Part shown: positions 2,211-27,241 of the stretch, piece by piece | Numbering within the stretch: the first letter of the stretch is position 1 | Layout: each line of letters opens with the position of its first letter | Source of the DNA: Planctomycetaceae bacterium | Lineage (GTDB): Bacteria > Planctomycetota > Planctomycetia > Pirellulales > Lacipirellulaceae | DNA length: 64,000 bases | NCBI GenBank assembly: GCA_003233055.1 | Contig: QIKP01000017.1 | Coordinates: forward strand, 8,299-72,298 | Reading direction: 5' to 3' | Position numbers and translations under genes: made by a program | Notes under the pieces: model-generated | Told to the model about the DNA's origin: nothing | The model's database searches: none | Seen by the model: only the letters and a program-made list of their open reading frames with translations

Positions 2211-2717
2211 GTGTCCTTAGCAAAATATCTCAACTCGCTGGAGGTCGGTCGCTGCGAGGCAGAATTAAGGCAATGCTGCGCGGCGGAGGCATGGGTGCGA
2301 GGAATGCTCGACAGACGGCCTTTTGACAGCAGCCTCTCGGTTCGTAGCGCAGCCGAGACGATCTGGAAATCGCTCTCGGAAGCCGACTGGCGGGAAGCGT
2401 TCGAGGCCCATCCGCGCATTGGCGATCTCACCTCGCTTCAAGACAAATTTGGCGCTACGCGAGACTGGGCCGAGGGAGAACAATCGGGCGCGGCGGCAGC
2501 GGACATCGAGACACTCCAGCGTCTTGCCGATCTGAACCAAAAATACCTGGATCGATTCGGATATCTCTTCATCGTCTGCGCGACCGGCAAGACGGCGGCC
2601 CAGATGCTCGCTCTCCTCAAGGCCCGGCTGCCCAACCGACCAGAGGTCGAGATCAAAATCGCAGCGGCCGAGCAACTCAAAATCACCCTCCTTCGATTAG
2701 CAAAGCTGGTACCATGA
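2211..2717 (+). CDS. uraD: OHCU decarboxylase
   Basis: AHPRIG, EQSGA, LNQKYLDRFGYLFIVCATGK, EQLKIT motifs; operon context. Confidence 0.92.
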   Translation: MSLAKYLNSLEVGRCEAELRQCCAAEAWVRGMLDRRPFDSSLSVRSAAETIWKSLSEADWREAFEAHPRIGDLTSLQDKFGATRDWAEGEQSGAAAADIETLQRLADLNQKYLDRFGYLFIVCATGKTAAQMLALLKARLPNRPEVEIKIAAAEQLKITLLRLAKLVP

Positions 2718-3052
2718 GCCCGATAACCACCCACGTTCTCGATACGTCGCTCGGGCAGCCCGCCGAGGGGATGGTCATCCGGCTGGAGCAAGAGACCTCC
2801 GAAGAATGGAACGCCTTGGCCAGCGGAGTGACCGATTCGGACGGGCGAATTGTCGATTGGCTCCCGACCGGTTCGCTGGAGATCGGCACCTATCGGCTCG
2901 TCTTCGCGACAGGGGATTACTTCTCGCGGCTTGGCATCGAAGCCTTCTATCCCCGAGTGACCGTGGAGTGGACCCTCTCGGACTCCGATTCCCACTACCA
3001 TGTGCCGCTACTCTTAAGTCCTTTCGGATATTCGACTTATCGTGGGAGTTGA
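2714..3052 (+). CDS. uraH: 5-hydroxyisourate hydrolase (transthyretin-like)
   Basis: ITTHVLDT, TDSDGR, HYHVPLLLSPFGYSTYRGS C-terminal signature. Confidence 0.96.
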   Translation: MSPITTHVLDTSLGQPAEGMVIRLEQETSEEWNALASGVTDSDGRIVDWLPTGSLEIGTYRLVFATGDYFSRLGIEAFYPRVTVEWTLSDSDSHYHVPLLLSPFGYSTYRGS

Positions 3053-3077
3053 CGCCCCCTTCTTCCAATGTCCCCCC

Positions 3078-3102
3078 TAGCCGACGAGCTACGCCTCGTC
3101 GG
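3078..3102 (+). repeat. REP-like hairpin, family 1 (TAGCCGACGAGCTACGCCTCGTCGG)
   Basis: 8-bp stem CCGACGAG/CTCGTCGG; same sequence recurs at 27277, 31145, 31181, 36773, 47941. Confidence 0.9.
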
Positions 3103-3258
3103 GGCGAACCGTCCCCTCCCATCCCTTCTATTCCTCATTATCCGATGGCTGCTCGGGGGACGCTTTCTGTGACCTAGCTTTGGAAGGACGTTAGGGCGCG
3201 AAGTCTGCGTTCCTTCCCTCTGCCAACGCTGTCCGTCAATCCCAAGCCGCGCGTATCC

Positions 3259-4659
3259 ATGACCACCGCCGTCGCACCAGAACCTTCTTCCGCGCTGCTT
3301 GAATCTCTTCTGGGGGAGGGGACGTTCTCTCCTCAGGAGCCACAGACGCTCGAAGAAGTCGGGGTAAGCTCCGTTCTGATCGAAGGGTTGGCGATCAAGT
3401 ACCTGCTACAGGTCGGGACCTCCACCGGTCGGGACCTCGCGGACAAGCTCTGCCTTCCTTTTCCGTTGGTGGAAGAGATCCTCGTAGGGTTGCGCACCCG
3501 GCAAGTCGTCGTCCATATGGGGCAGGGGCAGTTCAATGACTACAGCTATCGGCTCACCGACGATGGGGCGGAGAGAGCTCGGGCGGCCATGCAGGCCTGT
3601 GCCTACATTGGCCCGGTGCCCGTACCACTCGAGGAGTACATCGTGTCGGTGGAGGCCCAGACAATTCGTGCCGAAGCGGTACTGCGAAGGGACTTGGCCA
3701 AGGCCTTTGAAGGCATCTCCGTTGAGCCAAAGATGCTCGACATCCTGGGCCCTGCCATCAACAGTGGGGCGGGCCTCTTCCTTTACGGCGCTCCGGGAAA
3801 TGGAAAAACAACCCTCGCCAAGCGGATTACCCGCTGCTTTGGCAACTCCATATGGATTCCTCGCACGCTGATCGAAGATGGGCAATTCGTCAAATTATTT
3901 GACGCCGCCTTTCACGAACCGATCGAGGCGACCCAATCGAGCATCATCAAAAGCGAGACCGTCGACAATCGCTGGATCAAGATTGGCCGGCCGACGGTCG
4001 TCGTGGGTGGCGAGCTGACGATGGACAGCCTCGAAATTCGCCACGACCCGGTTGCGAACGTCAGCGAAGCCTCGCTGCAACTCAAGAGCAACGGGGGCTG
4101 CCTACTCATCGATGACTTCGGTCGTCAACGCGTCGAGCCGACGGAGCTCCTCAATCGATGGATCGTTCCTCTGGAAAATCGTTTCGATTTCCTCTCCCTG
4201 GCGACCGGCCGGAAGATTCAGGTCCCGTTCGACCAACTGATTATTTTCTCCACCAACCTTGAACCGGACGACCTCGCCGACGAGGCATTTCTTCGGCGTA
4301 TTCCTTACAAAGTCGAAGTGGGCGATCCAGGACTTACCGAATTTCGCCAGCTATTCAAGCATTGCTGCGACTCCCTCGGGTGCGGCTATCGCCCCGAAGC
4401 GGTGGACTATCTGGTGGAGAAACACTACCGACCCCTCGGCCGGCCGCTACGGCGATGCCAAGCCCGCGACCTGCTGGCCCAGATTAAAAACTACTGCATC
4501 TACGAAGGGGTTTCCCTTGAATTGCGCCCTGACTACCTCGACCGAGCGGTGAGCGGCTACTTCACCGCTACCGGCAGCGAGAAGGCGAGCAGCGTCACCG
4601 ACCCGTCGGGCCAACCGAGCGACACGGCGGCAACTCCGGAGGCATCGAACCAAACGTGA
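3259..4659 (+). CDS. AAA+ ATPase with N-terminal winged-helix-like region
   Basis: Walker [10 protein letters not shown], Walker B LLIDDFG, FSTN sensor region, AFLRRI; paralogue at 52108-53616. Confidence 0.85.
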   Translation: MTTAVAPEPSSALLESLLGEGTFSPQEPQTLEEVGVSSVLIEGLAIKYLLQVGTSTGRDLADKLCLPFPLVEEILVGLRTRQVVVHMGQGQFNDYSYRLTDDGAERARAAMQACAYIGPVPVPLEEYIVSVEAQTIRAEAVLRRDLAKAFEGISVEPKMLDILGPAINSGAGLFLYGAPGNGKTTLAKRITRCFGNSIWIPRTLIEDGQFVKLFDAAFHEPIEATQSSIIKSETVDNRWIKIGRPTVVVGGELTMDSLEIRHDPVANVSEASLQLKSNGGCLLIDDFGRQRVEPTELLNRWIVPLENRFDFLSLATGRKIQVPFDQLIIFSTNLEPDDLADEAFLRRIPYKVEVGDPGLTEFRQLFKHCCDSLGCGYRPEAVDYLVEKHYRPLGRPLRRCQARDLLAQIKNYCIYEGVSLELRPDYLDRAVSGYFTATGSEKASSVTDPSGQPSDTAATPEASNQT

Positions 4660-21944: not shown

Positions 21945-23669
21945 TCATTCGCTCGTGGCGATAATGTCGTTCGATTCGCTCGCCACGAGCGTTCCCCACT
22001 CTACCCTGAATCGCTGCTCGCACTTAGGGCAGACGACCTTCTTGCCAAGGAACTTGGCGGGAATGTCCTTGCCATGCTTGCATTGGTCGCAAGTGATGTG
22101 CAGTCGGCAGGCCTGGTCGTCGATCGGAGTGAAGACATTCTCGGGGATCTCCTCAAACTGGATATCGCCCTCGACGAGCAACTGCAACTGATCGTCCGTG
22201 ATCTCCACGATCCCCGCCAAGCGATTGGCCATGCCTCGGATCGCTTGCTCAAACAGGTTGCGCGCGGCACGACCGTTACCAAAGTGGCGATCGCGGTGGT
22301 CGTAGAGATACGTCATCCCTTGAATAATCTTTAGCCGTGCGGCCGGCGTGAGGTCGTAGTGGTTCTTTCGGCAAAACAGGCCAAAGATGGCGGCAATCTC
22401 GAACGGAGTGTAGTCGATGAATTCGAGCTGCCGACTGAACCGAGAGGAGAGGCCTGGATTCGACTTCAAGAGGTCCTCCATCTCGTCGGGGTAGCCAGCA
22501 AGGATAACAACCAGTCGCCCCCGTTCATCCTCGGCCCGTTTGAGCAGCGCCTGCACGGCCTCGTTACCATACGGGTCTTCGCTGCGCGTGGCGACGAGGC
22601 TGTAGGCTTCGTCGATGAAGAGGATTCCATCGAGCGCTTCGTCGATTTTCTTGTTCGTCTTGGGGCCCGTTTGGCCCGAGTACTCGGCAACCAGGCCGGA
22701 GCGATCGGTTTCGACCAGATGGCCTTTGTCCAGAACGCCCAGCGCGCCGTAGATTTTTCCGACGATCCGCGCGACGGTCGTCTTGCCGGTGCCAGGATTG
22801 CCCGTAAAAACCATGTGGAGACTAATATCGGTTTCGGGAAGCCCTGCGGCGGTTCGCTTTTGCTGGAGCTTGAGAAAGTTGGCCAGCGAGCGGACTTCAT
22901 GCTTGATTTCGCCCAGACCAATCAGCTTGTCCAGTTGGGCCAGCGCTTCCTCGACCGTGATCTTAGGCGGTTCTTTTTTTCCTTCGGCGACGGCTAGATT
23001 TTCCGCTGGCTTCTTGCGGCGGGGATCCAGCCTCGGCCTGTTGCCTCGTGAAGGGGCTGCGACGTAGATGCCATCCTCCGCGTCGTAGCGAATTTCCTCG
23101 ATTGCCTGCGAGCCGACAGCCTCGGCGTCGGTCGGCTCGGCATCCAGTGGTTTCTGCCGAAGGTGGCTGTCGAGTTCGATCTGAATCGACTTGATAATCG
23201 CTGCTTCGGGTGGGTTAAGCGTGCCATCGGCGCGGGCGATAAGGTTGGCGAGTCGGACGACAAGCGTATCGAGGCGGCCAATTTTTTCGCGAAGTGGCGT
23301 GATCCGGCCGAAGGGGCGGACCAAGCTATACCACTTCAGCTTGTTCGACTCGCTTGACGCACGCTTCATCGTCTCGCTGAGTTTCTCACCACTGAGCCAA
23401 TGCCCCCACAGATGGTGACAGAGCACCTCGCCCAAGAATCGCTCTTGCTTACTCCACTCTTTGTCCGCTTCGCAAACCTGGAGATAAATTTTGAGGACCA
23501 GTGCTCGGTGCAGGTCGTCCATCAAGGCGACGAATTGGCCCTCCCCTTTCTCGATCAGATGCGGATAGTCCCGCTCGCAGAGTTCGCCACTCGAAACGTA
23601 GAGCTTCCGGCATTCGCGCAGTGTGCGACTAAAAAGCGATGGCCGAGACGGAATATCAAAACCTGGCAT
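21945..23669 (-). CDS. CbbX/SpoVK-type AAA+ ATPase with TerB-like N-terminus and C-terminal Zn ribbon
   Basis: HMVFTGNPGTGKTTVAR, ETDRSGLV, LFIDEAYSL, NPGLSSRF, GNGRAARN; LIARADGTLNPPE; CDQC...CPKC. Confidence 0.88.
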   Translation of the reverse strand: MPGFDIPSRPSLFSRTLRECRKLYVSSGELCERDYPHLIEKGEGQFVALMDDLHRALVLKIYLQVCEADKEWSKQERFLGEVLCHHLWGHWLSGEKLSETMKRASSESNKLKWYSLVRPFGRITPLREKIGRLDTLVVRLANLIARADGTLNPPEAAIIKSIQIELDSHLRQKPLDAEPTDAEAVGSQAIEEIRYDAEDGIYVAAPSRGNRPRLDPRRKKPAENLAVAEGKKEPPKITVEEALAQLDKLIGLGEIKHEVRSLANFLKLQQKRTAAGLPETDISLHMVFTGNPGTGKTTVARIVGKIYGALGVLDKGHLVETDRSGLVAEYSGQTGPKTNKKIDEALDGILFIDEAYSLVATRSEDPYGNEAVQALLKRAEDERGRLVVILAGYPDEMEDLLKSNPGLSSRFSRQLEFIDYTPFEIAAIFGLFCRKNHYDLTPAARLKIIQGMTYLYDHRDRHFGNGRAARNLFEQAIRGMANRLAGIVEITDDQLQLLVEGDIQFEEIPENVFTPIDDQACRLHITCDQCKHGKDIPAKFLGKKVVCPKCEQRFRVEWGTLVASESNDIIATSE

Positions 23670-23803: not shown

Positions 23804-24436
23804 TTATGCCATTCCCATTCGGACGGCCCAGACAGCCGCTTGGGTTCGGTCGGAGACGCCCAGTTTGCGGAGGATGTGCTGGACATGTTCCTTCACCGTT
23901 TCGTAACTAATGCCAAGCGCTTCAGCGATTTCTTTGTTGGTAAGCCCAAAGGCGAGTTGCTTGAGAACTTCCATCTCGCGTTTGGTGAGAGGGACTTCAA
24001 TATCGAGCTCTTGGTTCGGTTCGCCCACTGGTCCGGTCACGCGGCGCCGATCCTCTGGCATCCAAACCGAACCACCTCCGGCCACTTCCTGAATTGCCGC
24101 AAGGAGTTTGTCGCGATCGACATCCTTCGTAAGGTATCCGGCCGCCCCCTGCGCCATCGCTCGCGCGACGAAGGTGGGGGAACGGTAGGCGGTGAACATC
24201 AGCACCGGGAGGTCGGGCCACTGCTCGCGGATTTCTCCAAGGCATCGCAGGCCATCGCACTCCGGCATCCGAACATCGAGCATCAGGACGTTTGGCTGAA
24301 ATTCCTTCACGAGGCGAACAGCCTCCAGCCCGTTTCCTGCTTCGGCGACGACCTCGATTTCCGTTCCGGAGACGAATTGTCGGATGCCGGTCCGAACGAC
24401 CGGGTGATCGTCGACTACCAGTAGCTTGATCGTCAT
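23804..24436 (-). CDS. NarL/LuxR family response regulator
   Basis: LLVVDDHPVV, LDVRMP, GYLTK, LTKREMEVL..LAFGLTNKEIA..L.IS.ETVKEH; no cognate kinase adjacent. Confidence 0.94.
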   Translation of the reverse strand: MTIKLLVVDDHPVVRTGIRQFVSGTEIEVVAEAGNGLEAVRLVKEFQPNVLMLDVRMPECDGLRCLGEIREQWPDLPVLMFTAYRSPTFVARAMAQGAAGYLTKDVDRDKLLAAIQEVAGGGSVWMPEDRRRVTGPVGEPNQELDIEVPLTKREMEVLKQLAFGLTNKEIAEALGISYETVKEHVQHILRKLGVSDRTQAAVWAVRMGMA

Positions 24437-24595
24437 CGCATTCCTCGCTTCCTCCGGCCAAACGGGGAGAGACGCTATCCGAGTCCAACCATCACGGTCT
24501 TTCTCTTTGCAGCGCCGCACTGTTTACACGCGGAGTCAGGAACTAAGATTTGTCAGAAAACTTTCATGGTACGGTGTGTGCTCTGGATGGCTCTC

Positions 24596-24979
24596 TCAAT
24601 ACGATACATCATAGAGAAAACGTGACGATTGCTTCGCCATGAATGTTGGCAGGCTGCGAAACAAGGTGTCACGAATTTTACACGACACCTTGTTCGTTAG
24701 ATTGGTCACTTTTCCAATTTGCCACGATACGTTTACGGTCCTCTTGACTTTGGAAAACCGGATAGCCAACGAGTCAAGGGGAACTCCAGCGTCTCTTACC
24801 TTTTTCGCCAATCCATATCTTTCAAGGAGGATCATGGCATTGGGAGGGAGAAGAATTCCTGCTCCAATTGGAGACATCTTCTTGGCGGCCTCGAAGACTC
24901 TCACATCCAACTGCTGCAATCGCATCGCGATGGCTGTTGAAAGCCCACCAATTCCAGCCCCTATTATGATTCCGCGCAA
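24596..24979 (-). pseudogene. FAD-dependent monooxygenase with large in-frame internal deletion
   Basis: N-terminal IIIGAGIGGLS...FEAA...GAGI joined directly to C-terminal-type VNVSWQIGK...RDTLFRSLP; only 127 aa; GGAGG SD and TTG start; visibly AT-richer than flanks. Confidence 0.8.
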
Positions 24980-24997
24980 AATGGAGTTCCTCCAAAA

Positions 24998-25057
24998 GCC
25001 TGCCGTGAAAGCTCAGCGGCGCGGCTTGCCCGCGTCCGCTGGAGTGTTTTGTTGGGT
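24998..25057 (-). mobile_element. Integron attC recombination site (R' degenerate)
   Basis: Minus strand: ACCCAAC-5nt-ACTCCAGC-GGACGCGGGCAAGCCGCGCC-GCTGAGC-6nt-GGCAGGC; 60 bp, two extrahelical bases at the expected positions. Confidence 0.8.
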
Positions 25058-25206
25058 GTTTTCTTTGACTTTCAATGCAGCCTGCAAATCTTTGATCCGT
25101 TCTCGGTCAATCTTGGGCCATCGCACTCCTTCAGTGTAAGGGAAAATGCGTTTCTCCGCTGTTCTAATCACGGAACGGAGGAATCGTTCGACAAGGCCGA
25201 TTGGAA
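25013..25206 (-). pseudogene. Probable 3' remnant of a gene cassette ORF reading into the attC
   Basis: Open frame ends with TGA inside the attC L' box; no recognisable family. Confidence 0.35.
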
Positions 25207-25239
25207 CCGTGAACGGTTCCGGAAAAAGTAACCACCGCT

Positions 25240-26367
25240 TTACGGCCTCCGGTCGCCTGCTACGGGCGCTTTTGCGGTGGCGAGCCATTCCAGTACCACC
25301 CAGCCGACCTTGGCCAGGGAGTCGCCAGAGCAATTTCGGGGGAGGTCTTGTTCCGTATGCCAGTACGAACCAGGTTGGCCAAAGGGGGTGTCAGGGTACT
25401 CTGCGTCAATGATATCGCACGTCGGAATGCGGGCGATGTCGTGAAGCGCGATGTGGTCGTCCCGAATAAATCCTTCGTTTCGCCCCCGTTTGGTGCGAGG
25501 AACAAACTCCTGGACTCCCAGGCGCTGGGCGGTGGTCCAGAGGTCGATCACCAGTGGCCGGGTGTCGGGCCATGAAACGCTGTATTTTTCTTGCAGGATT
25601 TCAAGGTTCGCATCTCCTACCATGTCGAGCAGCACGCCCCAATGGTAGCGGTGGGAGGGGCGATTCTTTCGGTAGTCGCGGGCAAAGTACTCACTGCCGA
25701 GGAAGTATTTTCCTTTTTCGCCTCCCCACCGATTGTTGCCATAGACCAACTCTTCCGCATCGAACAGCACAAAATCAACGCCCAAGTTCGGTTGTAAACG
25801 CCCCAAGTGGTGCGCGAGTTCCATCAGCACGGCGACCCCGCTTGCCCCGTCGTTGGCACCGATGAAGACCCCTTCACGTCTGCGGCGAGGATTCGGGTCT
25901 TGGTCAGGAAGGGGTCGCGTGTCGTAGTGGGCGCAAAGGAGCAGTCGGTCGGTTTTTTCCGGGTGCCACTCGACGAGCAGGTTGGCACAGGCGACCCGTT
26001 TTCGGGTGATCGGGTGGCGAATGGAGAACTTCTGCCGGGTTACTTTGCCTCCCAGCTTCTCGAAAAACTTCGTGACGAGCGCCTGCTGCCGAGCCATCCC
26101 TCGGCTGCCGCTTGGCCGGGGTCCGAGATTCGCCAACTGCGTGAGGTAGCCGAATGCCCGATCGGCGTCGAGCGGGTTGGTCCTCTCTTGCTGCGCCGCG
26201 ACTTGGCGAATGGGCGACTTACTTGCCTTGTCGCGACTTGCCGGCGCCGCTTCCGGCTGCTGGCCTCCACACCCCAGCAGCAATAACACCAAGACCCAAA
26301 CGGCGGGCGAGCCCGCTTCAGCGGGTGGCCCTCCCCCCTCACGGTACCGGCACCTCTCAGTCAACAT
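25240..26367 (-). CDS. M28 family peptidase / glutaminyl cyclase-like lipoprotein
   Basis: Lipobox LLLGC; HYDTRP, GANDGASG, FDAEE, LLDMVGD, DDH, WHT; start uncertain. Confidence 0.88.
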   Translation of the reverse strand: MLTERCRYREGGGPPAEAGSPAVWVLVLLLLGCGGQQPEAAPASRDKASKSPIRQVAAQQERTNPLDADRAFGYLTQLANLGPRPSGSRGMARQQALVTKFFEKLGGKVTRQKFSIRHPITRKRVACANLLVEWHPEKTDRLLLCAHYDTRPLPDQDPNPRRRREGVFIGANDGASGVAVLMELAHHLGRLQPNLGVDFVLFDAEELVYGNNRWGGEKGKYFLGSEYFARDYRKNRPSHRYHWGVLLDMVGDANLEILQEKYSVSWPDTRPLVIDLWTTAQRLGVQEFVPRTKRGRNEGFIRDDHIALHDIARIPTCDIIDAEYPDTPFGQPGSYWHTEQDLPRNCSGDSLAKVGWVVLEWLATAKAPVAGDRRP

Positions 26368-27241
26368 TGTGAAACTCCGAAATAATCTTCCACGCCTCCT
26401 TGGGCGTTTCGGCAAACGAGATCAAGTCGAGATGTTCGTCAGCAATCACCCCTTCGTCGGCGAGCGTCTGGAAGTTGATGATCGACTCCCAGTATTCCCG
26501 GCCATACAGAATGATCGGAATCGCCTGCATCCGACCGGTCTGCCGCAAGCAGAGGGTGTTGAACAATTCGTCGAGCGTCCCATACCCACCTGGGAAAACC
26601 ACGAGCGCCGCGGCCCGCAAAATGAAGTGAAACTTCCGCATCGCGAAGTAGTGGAACTGAAAACAAAGCTCCGGCGTGATGTAGGGGTTCGGTTCCTGCT
26701 CGTGCGGCAGCTCGATGTTCAGCCCGACGTTCTTCGCTCCGACTTCAAAGGCTCCCCGGTTGGCTGCCTCCATGATCCCTGGCCCCCCCCCGGTGGTCAC
26801 GACAAATTCGCACTTGCCATCCAGTTGGCAGCTACTCGAGGCGATTTTCGCAAACTCCCGGGCGTGGTCGTAGTAAAAGCTCTTGGCGAGTTGCGCTTCG
26901 CTGCGTGCGACGGCCCGTTGCAGTCGTTCGTTGCTGGGCGTCTCGGCAAGTTCTTCCTTGGCGGTGGCGACCCGGGCTTCGGCTTCTTCCTTGGCCACGA
27001 TTTGCGTCCCGCCAAACACGACGACGAGCGACTCGATATTGTGTTTACGAAACCATTGCTCGGTTTTTTGCAGCTCGAGCTGCATCCGCACCGGTCGCTG
27101 CGCCGACCGTTTCAGGAACTCCACGTCGTATTCGGCCAGCAGGTAGCTGGGCGATTTCAAGATCGCCTGCCGATTGAGCTCCACCGCCTCGGCAAGGTTT
27201 TCGTGGTGAGCATTCAGGGTGAATTCGTCAGGTTGGGACAT
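26357..27241 (-). CDS. LOG family (Rossmann-fold nucleotide-processing) protein
   Basis: VVFGGT, TGGGPGIMEAANRGA, FHYFAMRK, FPGGYGTLDEL. Confidence 0.92.
   Translation of the reverse strand: MSQPDEFTLNAHHENLAEAVELNRQAILKSPSYLLAEYDVEFLKRSAQRPVRMQLELQKTEQWFRKHNIESLVVVFGGTQIVAKEEAEARVATAKEELAETPSNERLQRAVARSEAQLAKSFYYDHAREFAKIASSSCQLDGKCEFVVTTGGGPGIMEAANRGAFEVGAKNVGLNIELPHEQEPNPYITPELCFQFHYFAMRKFHFILRAAALVVFPGGYGTLDELFNTLCLRQTGRMQAIPIILYGREYWESIINFQTLADEGVIADEHLDLISFAETPKEAWKIISEFHNVD

Follow-up and report, generated by a model that had tools for sequence, protein, structure and literature searches.

A low-GC patch at about 24446-25239 of the window, by which we mean the whole 64,000-nucleotide stretch of DNA that was analysed and that lies on contig C11 of the assembly, is very probably an immobile, non-functional relic of an integron segment of at least two cassettes. 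Read along the minus strand, the relic would consist of the attC of an upstream cassette that has since vanished, followed by a cassette carrying an FAD-monooxygenase gene with its leader, start and stop; this second cassette would have lost about 253 internal codons as well as its own attC. A decayed two-cassette fragment had already been proposed from the letters and open reading frames of this DNA (here called the sequence-only reading). The decayed attC and the cassette gene of that proposal stand. A coding remnant upstream of the site and a second attC after the gene do not, and thus the count of two cassettes comes from one attC and one gene.

The attC site and its recognition

For recombination, the bottom strand of an attC folds as a single strand; the integrase recognises it by the bases that bulge out and cleaves the R box between G and TT. 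How much of this architecture is left in the window? The site is 60 nt long (24998-25057, minus strand), was read base by base and is matched by both covariance models described below. It opens with the R'' box ACCCAAC (25057-25051), a 5-nt spacer AAAAC (25050-25046) and L'', which reads ACT[C]CAGCGG with the bulged C in brackets (25045-25036). A second bulged base, an A at 25035, precedes the central stem, whose 5' arm CGCGG (25034-25030) and 3' arm CCGCG (25024-25020) enclose the 5-nt loop GCAAG (25029-25025). On the returning side come L', which is CCGCTGAGC or CCGCTG+AGC (25019-25011), a 6-nt spacer TTTCAC (25010-25005) and the R' box GGCAGGC (25004-24998). All boxes, spacers and L lengths that the sequence-only reading had listed for a 60-bp site at 25057-24998 are therefore present, and the two extrahelical bases that it placed on the recombining strand appear as C and A when the top strand is read, their bottom-strand counterparts being G and T. 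L'' and L' pair, the 5- and 6-nt spacers are unpaired and the extrahelical bases lie on the '' arm, which is the L-box, spacer and bulge pattern of an attC. The conserved AAC...GTT core is found in half: AAC is present in R'' and GTT is absent from R', both triplets being invariant across all 21 reference attCs, and 3 of the 7 positions of R'' and R' pair. R' had been read as GGCAGGC in place of GTTAGGC, which fits a paralogous junction on contig C53 that ends in GTTAGGC at the homologous bases; with GGCAGGC in this position the invariant GTT is lost. Judged from its letters, the site is expected to be inert for recombination, as it has lost both its point of cleavage and the pairing of its R box, and the integrase exists in this genome only in fragments.

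Is a site damaged in this way still recognisable as an attC? Rfam has no attC family (over 24300-25400 it gave only a meaningless lncRNA match, below threshold), and clade-specific models were used for detection. A hand-written scan for AAC...GTT ends with a folded stem produced false matches in the ordinary genes of relatives, about one in every 1-2 kb, which is why covariance models were used in its place. These were built only from attCs that lie beside intact integrases in relatives, none of them from the studied genome. The DNA upstream of several such integrases holds cassette arrays with repeated attCs, and 21 attCs from these arrays form the reference set, which was modelled at full length (R1) and again after trimming the same 21 to their conserved arms (R2). 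In the reference alignment 92.5% of the cells are paired, 13 of the 18 pairs have compensatory changes, none of 500 shuffles is as good and no slid register comes close. With R2 the window site is top-ranked in the 64 kb (23.8 bits, E 9.5e-4) and is the best match of the 2.78-Mb genome (E 0.04); the alignment covers model positions 7-55, with the spacers, both bulges, the L boxes and the stem, and drops the R box. Genuine attCs of other relatives score 24-56 bits with this model. As a check on noise, two genomes of the same genus show no attC, the best match in G003 reaching 17.5 bits and G005 having none at E <= 5. With R1 the site also comes first in the 64 kb, both strands searched, and its match spans the full model (1-91) and ends exactly at 25057 and 24998, but it scores 14.6 bits with an E of 0.3. 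The model penalises the short centre and the broken R of the window site, since its own centre has 40 nt and its R box is paired; with such an E value the arms-only model was needed. Elsewhere in the assembly, R1 found only an attC at C53:392-481, and R2 only a weak match on C4 besides the window site. A blastn match on C60, considered as a further attC, was dismissed as a chance 20-mer.

Against the relic reading stand the missing GTT, which defines R', and the full-length model, which is not significant by itself (E 0.3). To lose GTT, two bases side by side must also have been substituted, yet the adjoining 110 nt have diverged from their C53 counterpart by only about 6%. The same failure of the R box and the same R1 result would fit a GC-rich hairpin, terminator-like or REP-like, that lies between AAC- and GGC-containing flanks by chance, and the minimum-free-energy fold does pair the central hairpin only, with a modest fold z-score of -2.3. 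Such a hairpin would not be expected to match spacers, both bulges and L boxes as the site does in R2, nor to border on the start of a cassette which, at another locus, is preceded at this very base by an intact attC. Near-identical short attCs with an intact R' exist on a metagenome contig (L096) and in a same-genus genome (G006), and no T-run follows the hairpin. We therefore regard a plain hairpin as extremely unlikely. The G006 site (L113 2030-2089) is a 60-nt attC of the same subtype, CCCTAAC...GTTAGGC with R' intact, placed directly after a 181-aa ORF. The metagenomic one has 66 nt and reads GCCCAAC CCTAC AGT[C]AACCGG[A]CCTGCGCG-AAAAG-CCGCGCAGG CCGGTT ACT TTCAC GTTCGGC, again the short subtype of the window attC with its R' intact.

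The FAD-monooxygenase cassette

Directly after R', on the minus strand, lies an 18-nt cassette leader (24980-24997) with the Shine-Dalgarno sequence GGAGG at 24993-24989, known from its letters and from its identity to C53, and then a gene of 127 codons (24596-24979) that begins with TTG at 24979. The sequence-only reading had seen here a Shine-Dalgarno sequence and a TTG gene starting right after the site, as in a cassette array. Both are present and the DNA is indeed cassette DNA; what needed correction is the nature of the gene, which is more than a start. Pfam and BLASTP identify it as an FAD-dependent monooxygenase with its own stop and an in-frame internal deletion. The Pfam match to FAD_binding_3 covers positions 5-86 of 349 only, and BLASTP against a full-length homologue (L081) gives two blocks, in which residues 1-74 correspond to aa 1-74 and residues 75-127 to aa 328-380 of the homologue. 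On this alignment the gene keeps both its start and its stop and lacks about 253 internal codons, removed in frame; without the substrate-binding core it is a pseudogene. Full-length homologues come from two Gammaproteobacteria bins (L081 and L082, 380-385 aa) and from the metagenome contig L096. No close homologue was found in 301 genomes of the same order, where the best matches have 38-49% identity and reflect a generic Rossmann start, and the GC content of the ORF is 0.477 against 0.593 for the genome; both points speak for DNA of foreign origin, as does the absence of the interval from relatives.

On L096 the full-length gene (2501-3643, 62% identity over aa 1-79) sits between two attCs, the 66-nt site just described before it (2408-2473, R2 31 bits) and a 63-nt site after it (3661-3723), with one more attC and other small genes on the upstream side. 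It is a promoterless ORF with its own attC on the 3' side, the usual definition of a cassette, and the window gene has no such attC: between its stop codon (24596) and the start of the neighbouring regulator gene, neither R1 nor R2 found an attC at E <= 10. A candidate second attC picked by eye after the stop, TGTAAAC AGTGC GGCGCTGCAA, was rejected, as it lacks T15 and A18, both of them invariant in the reference alignment. At the two Gammaproteobacteria loci these models detected no attC, so these loci are no evidence that the gene is a cassette in those bins. Members of this cassette family come from Gammaproteobacteria bins, a metagenome array and an uncultured relative of Pirellula-like bacteria. 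This spread points to a cassette pool common to several phyla, and the family has modest use as a marker.

A second, differently broken copy of the cassette in the same genome shows where its boundary lies. Window positions 25001-24892 are 94% identical over 110 nt to C53:478-587, and within this stretch the leader (24980-24997) is homologous to C53:482-499, also at 94%, where it stands 3' of an intact attC. That attC is 90-95 nt long and, with 32.2 bits and an E of 6.7e-4, is the sole genome-wide significant R1 match; its family is also found in the array of a genome of the same family (G012). The identity between the two copies starts at the AGGC of R', and 5' of this point the two attCs are unrelated. 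Homology of two copies that begins at the R' box, behind unrelated attCs, is what marks a cassette boundary. On C53 only the first 30-40 codons or so of the gene are left, joined to native DNA of high GC with a membrane-protein gene. Before its attC stands the 3' fragment of what we take, by eye, to be an isochorismatase-type gene, and the debris at C53:1-650 (L009) may be the far end of an unassembled array.

Flanks, repeats and the route of arrival

The patch lies between two native genes of the minus strand, a NarL/LuxR-type response regulator (23804-24436; Pfam Response_reg and GerE) and an M28 family peptidase (25240-26415; Pfam Peptidase_M28). A GC profile, suggested earlier as a check, sets it apart: 24446-25239 has a GC content of 0.50, or 50% against 59%, with dips of 0.47-0.52, the flanking genes have 0.59-0.61 and the genome 0.593. 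On the minus strand, a low-GC stretch of 182 nt (25058-25239, GC 0.489), partly made of repeat modules, separates the M28 stop from the attC, and a spacer of 159 nt (24437-24595, GC 0.541), in which the expected attC of the cassette is not recognisable, leads from the FAD stop to the start of the regulator. Comparison of the regulator-M28 interval with relatives had also been recommended, and the 794 nt have no match in 40 of them, apart from one 36-nt stretch. This stretch, in G006 (L008 1501-1536, G006:C1:2928423-2928458), is identical in 32 of 36 nt to window 25033-25068, the 5' half of the attC (ACCCAACAAAACACTCCAGC...), with an E of 1.6e-5 for that genome; it lies in a low-complexity linker (TTQQNTPAD) of an 897-aa ORF and may be due to chance or to an attC-derived insertion. 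Upstream of the regulator, alignment with relatives showed no conservation past the ribosome-binding site, so the native boundary cannot be placed on that side.

What was upstream of the attC? The sequence-only reading had seen an ORF remnant ending inside the site. An ORF (25013-25333, minus strand) does end there, its TGA falling within L', but it shares its DNA with the end of the M28 gene, a dispersed 20-nt motif and a MITE end. Pfam does not match it, and a comparison of its last 69 residues (25016-25222) with 5.8 billion proteins gave no homologue. There is thus no sign that it was coding, and the first cassette is deduced from its attC. The 20-nt motif, GCGATGGCCCAAGATTGAC, has a copy at 25106-25125 on the minus strand and 7 matches in the genome at <= 2 mismatches, the others being C14:86417, C37:77, C54:2124, C65:435, C11:59585 and C20:33518. 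In the copies on C14, C37 and C54 a GGATACCGGACGGG-like tail follows. Within the motif is a TTGAC hexamer. One copy is doubled in tandem, and a tRNA-like 3' end is found about 100 nt away from one of the copies.

How did the segment reach this place? One suggestion had been that the patch, bracketed by element ends, was moved as cargo of a MITE family. The right-hand end is real: a hairpin GGAACCG-TGAA-CGGTTCC at 25203-25220 includes a terminal repeat that belongs to the GTAACCGTTCACGG MITE family and has its body side toward the attC, and CCGTGAACGGTTCC at 25207-25220 is a true copy of the repeat end, which has about 63 genome copies at <= 1 mismatch and exact 14-mer copies on C1, C7, C14 and C19. 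The left-hand end, AACCATCACGG at 24487, does not hold up, as it requires one deletion and one substitution, and matches as loose as this have a genome-wide density of 0.30 per kb, within the 0.12-0.31 per kb that shuffled motifs give, which is the level of chance. No direct repeat or target-site duplication flanks 24484 and 25220 in the letters, so the pair of inverted terminal repeats with a target-site duplication that marks a MITE carrier is lacking, and no other family copy among those listed carries a gene. With the left end at chance level and no target-site duplication, transport between two MITE ends fails as an explanation and is very improbable.

Synteny places the patch at a lineage-specific breakpoint. 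On the far side of the M28 gene, the gene order of the orthologues is kept in three relatives (G001, G002 and G005). Orthologues of the regulator, paired with the same downstream 574-aa gene, occur in four genomes of the genus; upstream of the regulator these four have at least 8 kb of genes in common, none of which is present in this assembly. The assembly is metagenome-derived, with 2.78 Mb in 79 contigs and an estimated completeness of 90%, and genomes of the same genus have 4.6-8.1 Mb, which means that this genome is either strongly reduced or incompletely binned. Could the join of M28 gene and patch then be a mis-assembly at a repeat, with the patch not truly beside the peptidase? The small bin in many contigs, the 63-copy repeat end at the join and the break of synteny at this point would agree with it. 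The repeat end is only 14-18 nt long, below the k-mers of assemblers, and we consider such an error quite unlikely; the identity of the attC and of the gene is in any case unaffected by it.

Two routes remain for a relic that is truly in place. The one we slightly favour, tentatively, is that a multi-cassette circle was inserted by the integrase at a non-att genomic site and that decay followed afterwards. It is also possible, if doubtful, that the chromosome was rearranged or suffered a deletion, for instance when some of the abundant MITEs recombined, and that a piece of a former array was thereby stranded as the patch. The patch coincides exactly with the breakpoint, where the M28 side is ordered as in G001, G002 and G005 and the genes of at least 8 kb upstream of the regulator in the four same-genus genomes are missing; a MITE end abuts it, an integrase fragment on contig C38 runs into MITE modules, and the C53 copy is likewise a truncated cassette fused to native DNA. 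Set against stranding is that, between genomes with 65-75% protein identity, breaks of synteny are common, and that foreign DNA gathers in variable spots anyway, and no relative has an attC or an integron at either flank. A bolder version of off-att insertion would have the patch mark a deletion caused by the integron itself, with insertion, imprecise excision, loss of at least 8 kb and a smaller genome as its steps; excision 'outside the insertion point' has been reported by Loot et al. (bioRxiv 10.1101/2022.09.11.507474), and we hold this sequence of events to be unlikely here.

Integrase remnants and related systems

Is the attC an orphan, as had been supposed? It is so in the sense that no integrase lies in the window or on its contig, but the genome holds two integrase fragments on other contigs, C38 and C47. 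Matches to TIGR02249 occur on C47, C22, C6 and C38 only and thus not on C11. The C38 fragment (22500-23547, L004) encodes aa 1-78, the N-terminal part, has one TAA stop and then gives way to MITE modules, and the C47 fragment (1-420, L001) starts at the contig edge and encodes 138 aa, the C-terminal aa 181-315; the middle of the integrase is missing or unassembled. Upstream of the C38 fragment, at the end of the contig, is a likely attI region with the start of a first cassette, MPQSFTSEVARKLKTYVYRLIDP, which we take by eye to be GIY-YIG-like. Among 301 genomes of the same order, 57 have an integron integrase above the curated cut-off of TIGR02249. Genomes of the genus in which no integrase is detectable hold many dispersed attC clusters and single attCs, such as clusters of 30-56 bits (R2) at C29:396371-400156, C70:18514-23908 and C74:153386-154793 of G002 and at C1:6125702-6151158, 5747003-5749740 and 5900246-5900633 of G006. 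In this genus, attC clusters and single attCs outlast the integrase.

Elements of this kind have already been described, and their relics are common in this order. Single attCs and attC clusters without an integrase are known as SALINs and small CALINs, respectively (Cury 2016, 10.1101/030866; Neron 2022, 10.1101/2022.02.28.482270; Loot, 10.1101/2022.09.11.507474), and isolated cassettes (SALINs) as well as off-att insertion were described by Loot et al. (10.1101/2022.09.11.507474). The window site, an attC with no integrase nearby, belongs among them: it is attC and cassette DNA outside an array, in a clade rich in integrons. It differs in that its attC has no R' GTT and precedes a recognisable gene instead of following it, and in that this gene has lost its interior as well as the attC that belonged to it. 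The window relic is further decayed than the surveyed elements, and IntegronFinder might miss it. Taken alone the relic has little significance. It documents how far an isolated cassette can decay and stay recognisable, with the R' cut site lost, the gene gutted in frame and the second attC gone.

Insertion at secondary or genomic (attG) sites, for which a passage of Loot et al. (10.1101/2022.09.11.507474) cites aadB in pRAY, would account for how cassette DNA came to lie outside att on the chromosome with no integrase in cis. That route leaves a hybrid site at the downstream end of the segment, whereas the window site is internal and no junction was identified. Among sedentary chromosomal integrons, the terminal attC of the G012 array (L035 6469-6577) is a natural parallel: it closes the array at its far end and is a genuine attC, with R' decayed to GTGAGCT rather than GTTAGnn, although it still lies in its array beside an intact integrase. 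The attCs of such integrons in the same order (L035, L073, L074 and L078) measure 87-139 nt, have kept their GTT and vary in their long centre, in contrast to the 60 nt, 5-nt loop and missing GTT of the window site, which finds its short, intact counterparts of 60-66 nt in L096 and G006. They share with it an R'' of the form nnYnAAC, spacers of 5 and 6 nt and a stem of 3 bp, a bulge, 6 bp, a bulged A and a GC stem, and in the L078 attC both L'' CAGCGGAC and L' CCGCTGA are identical to those of the window letter for letter.
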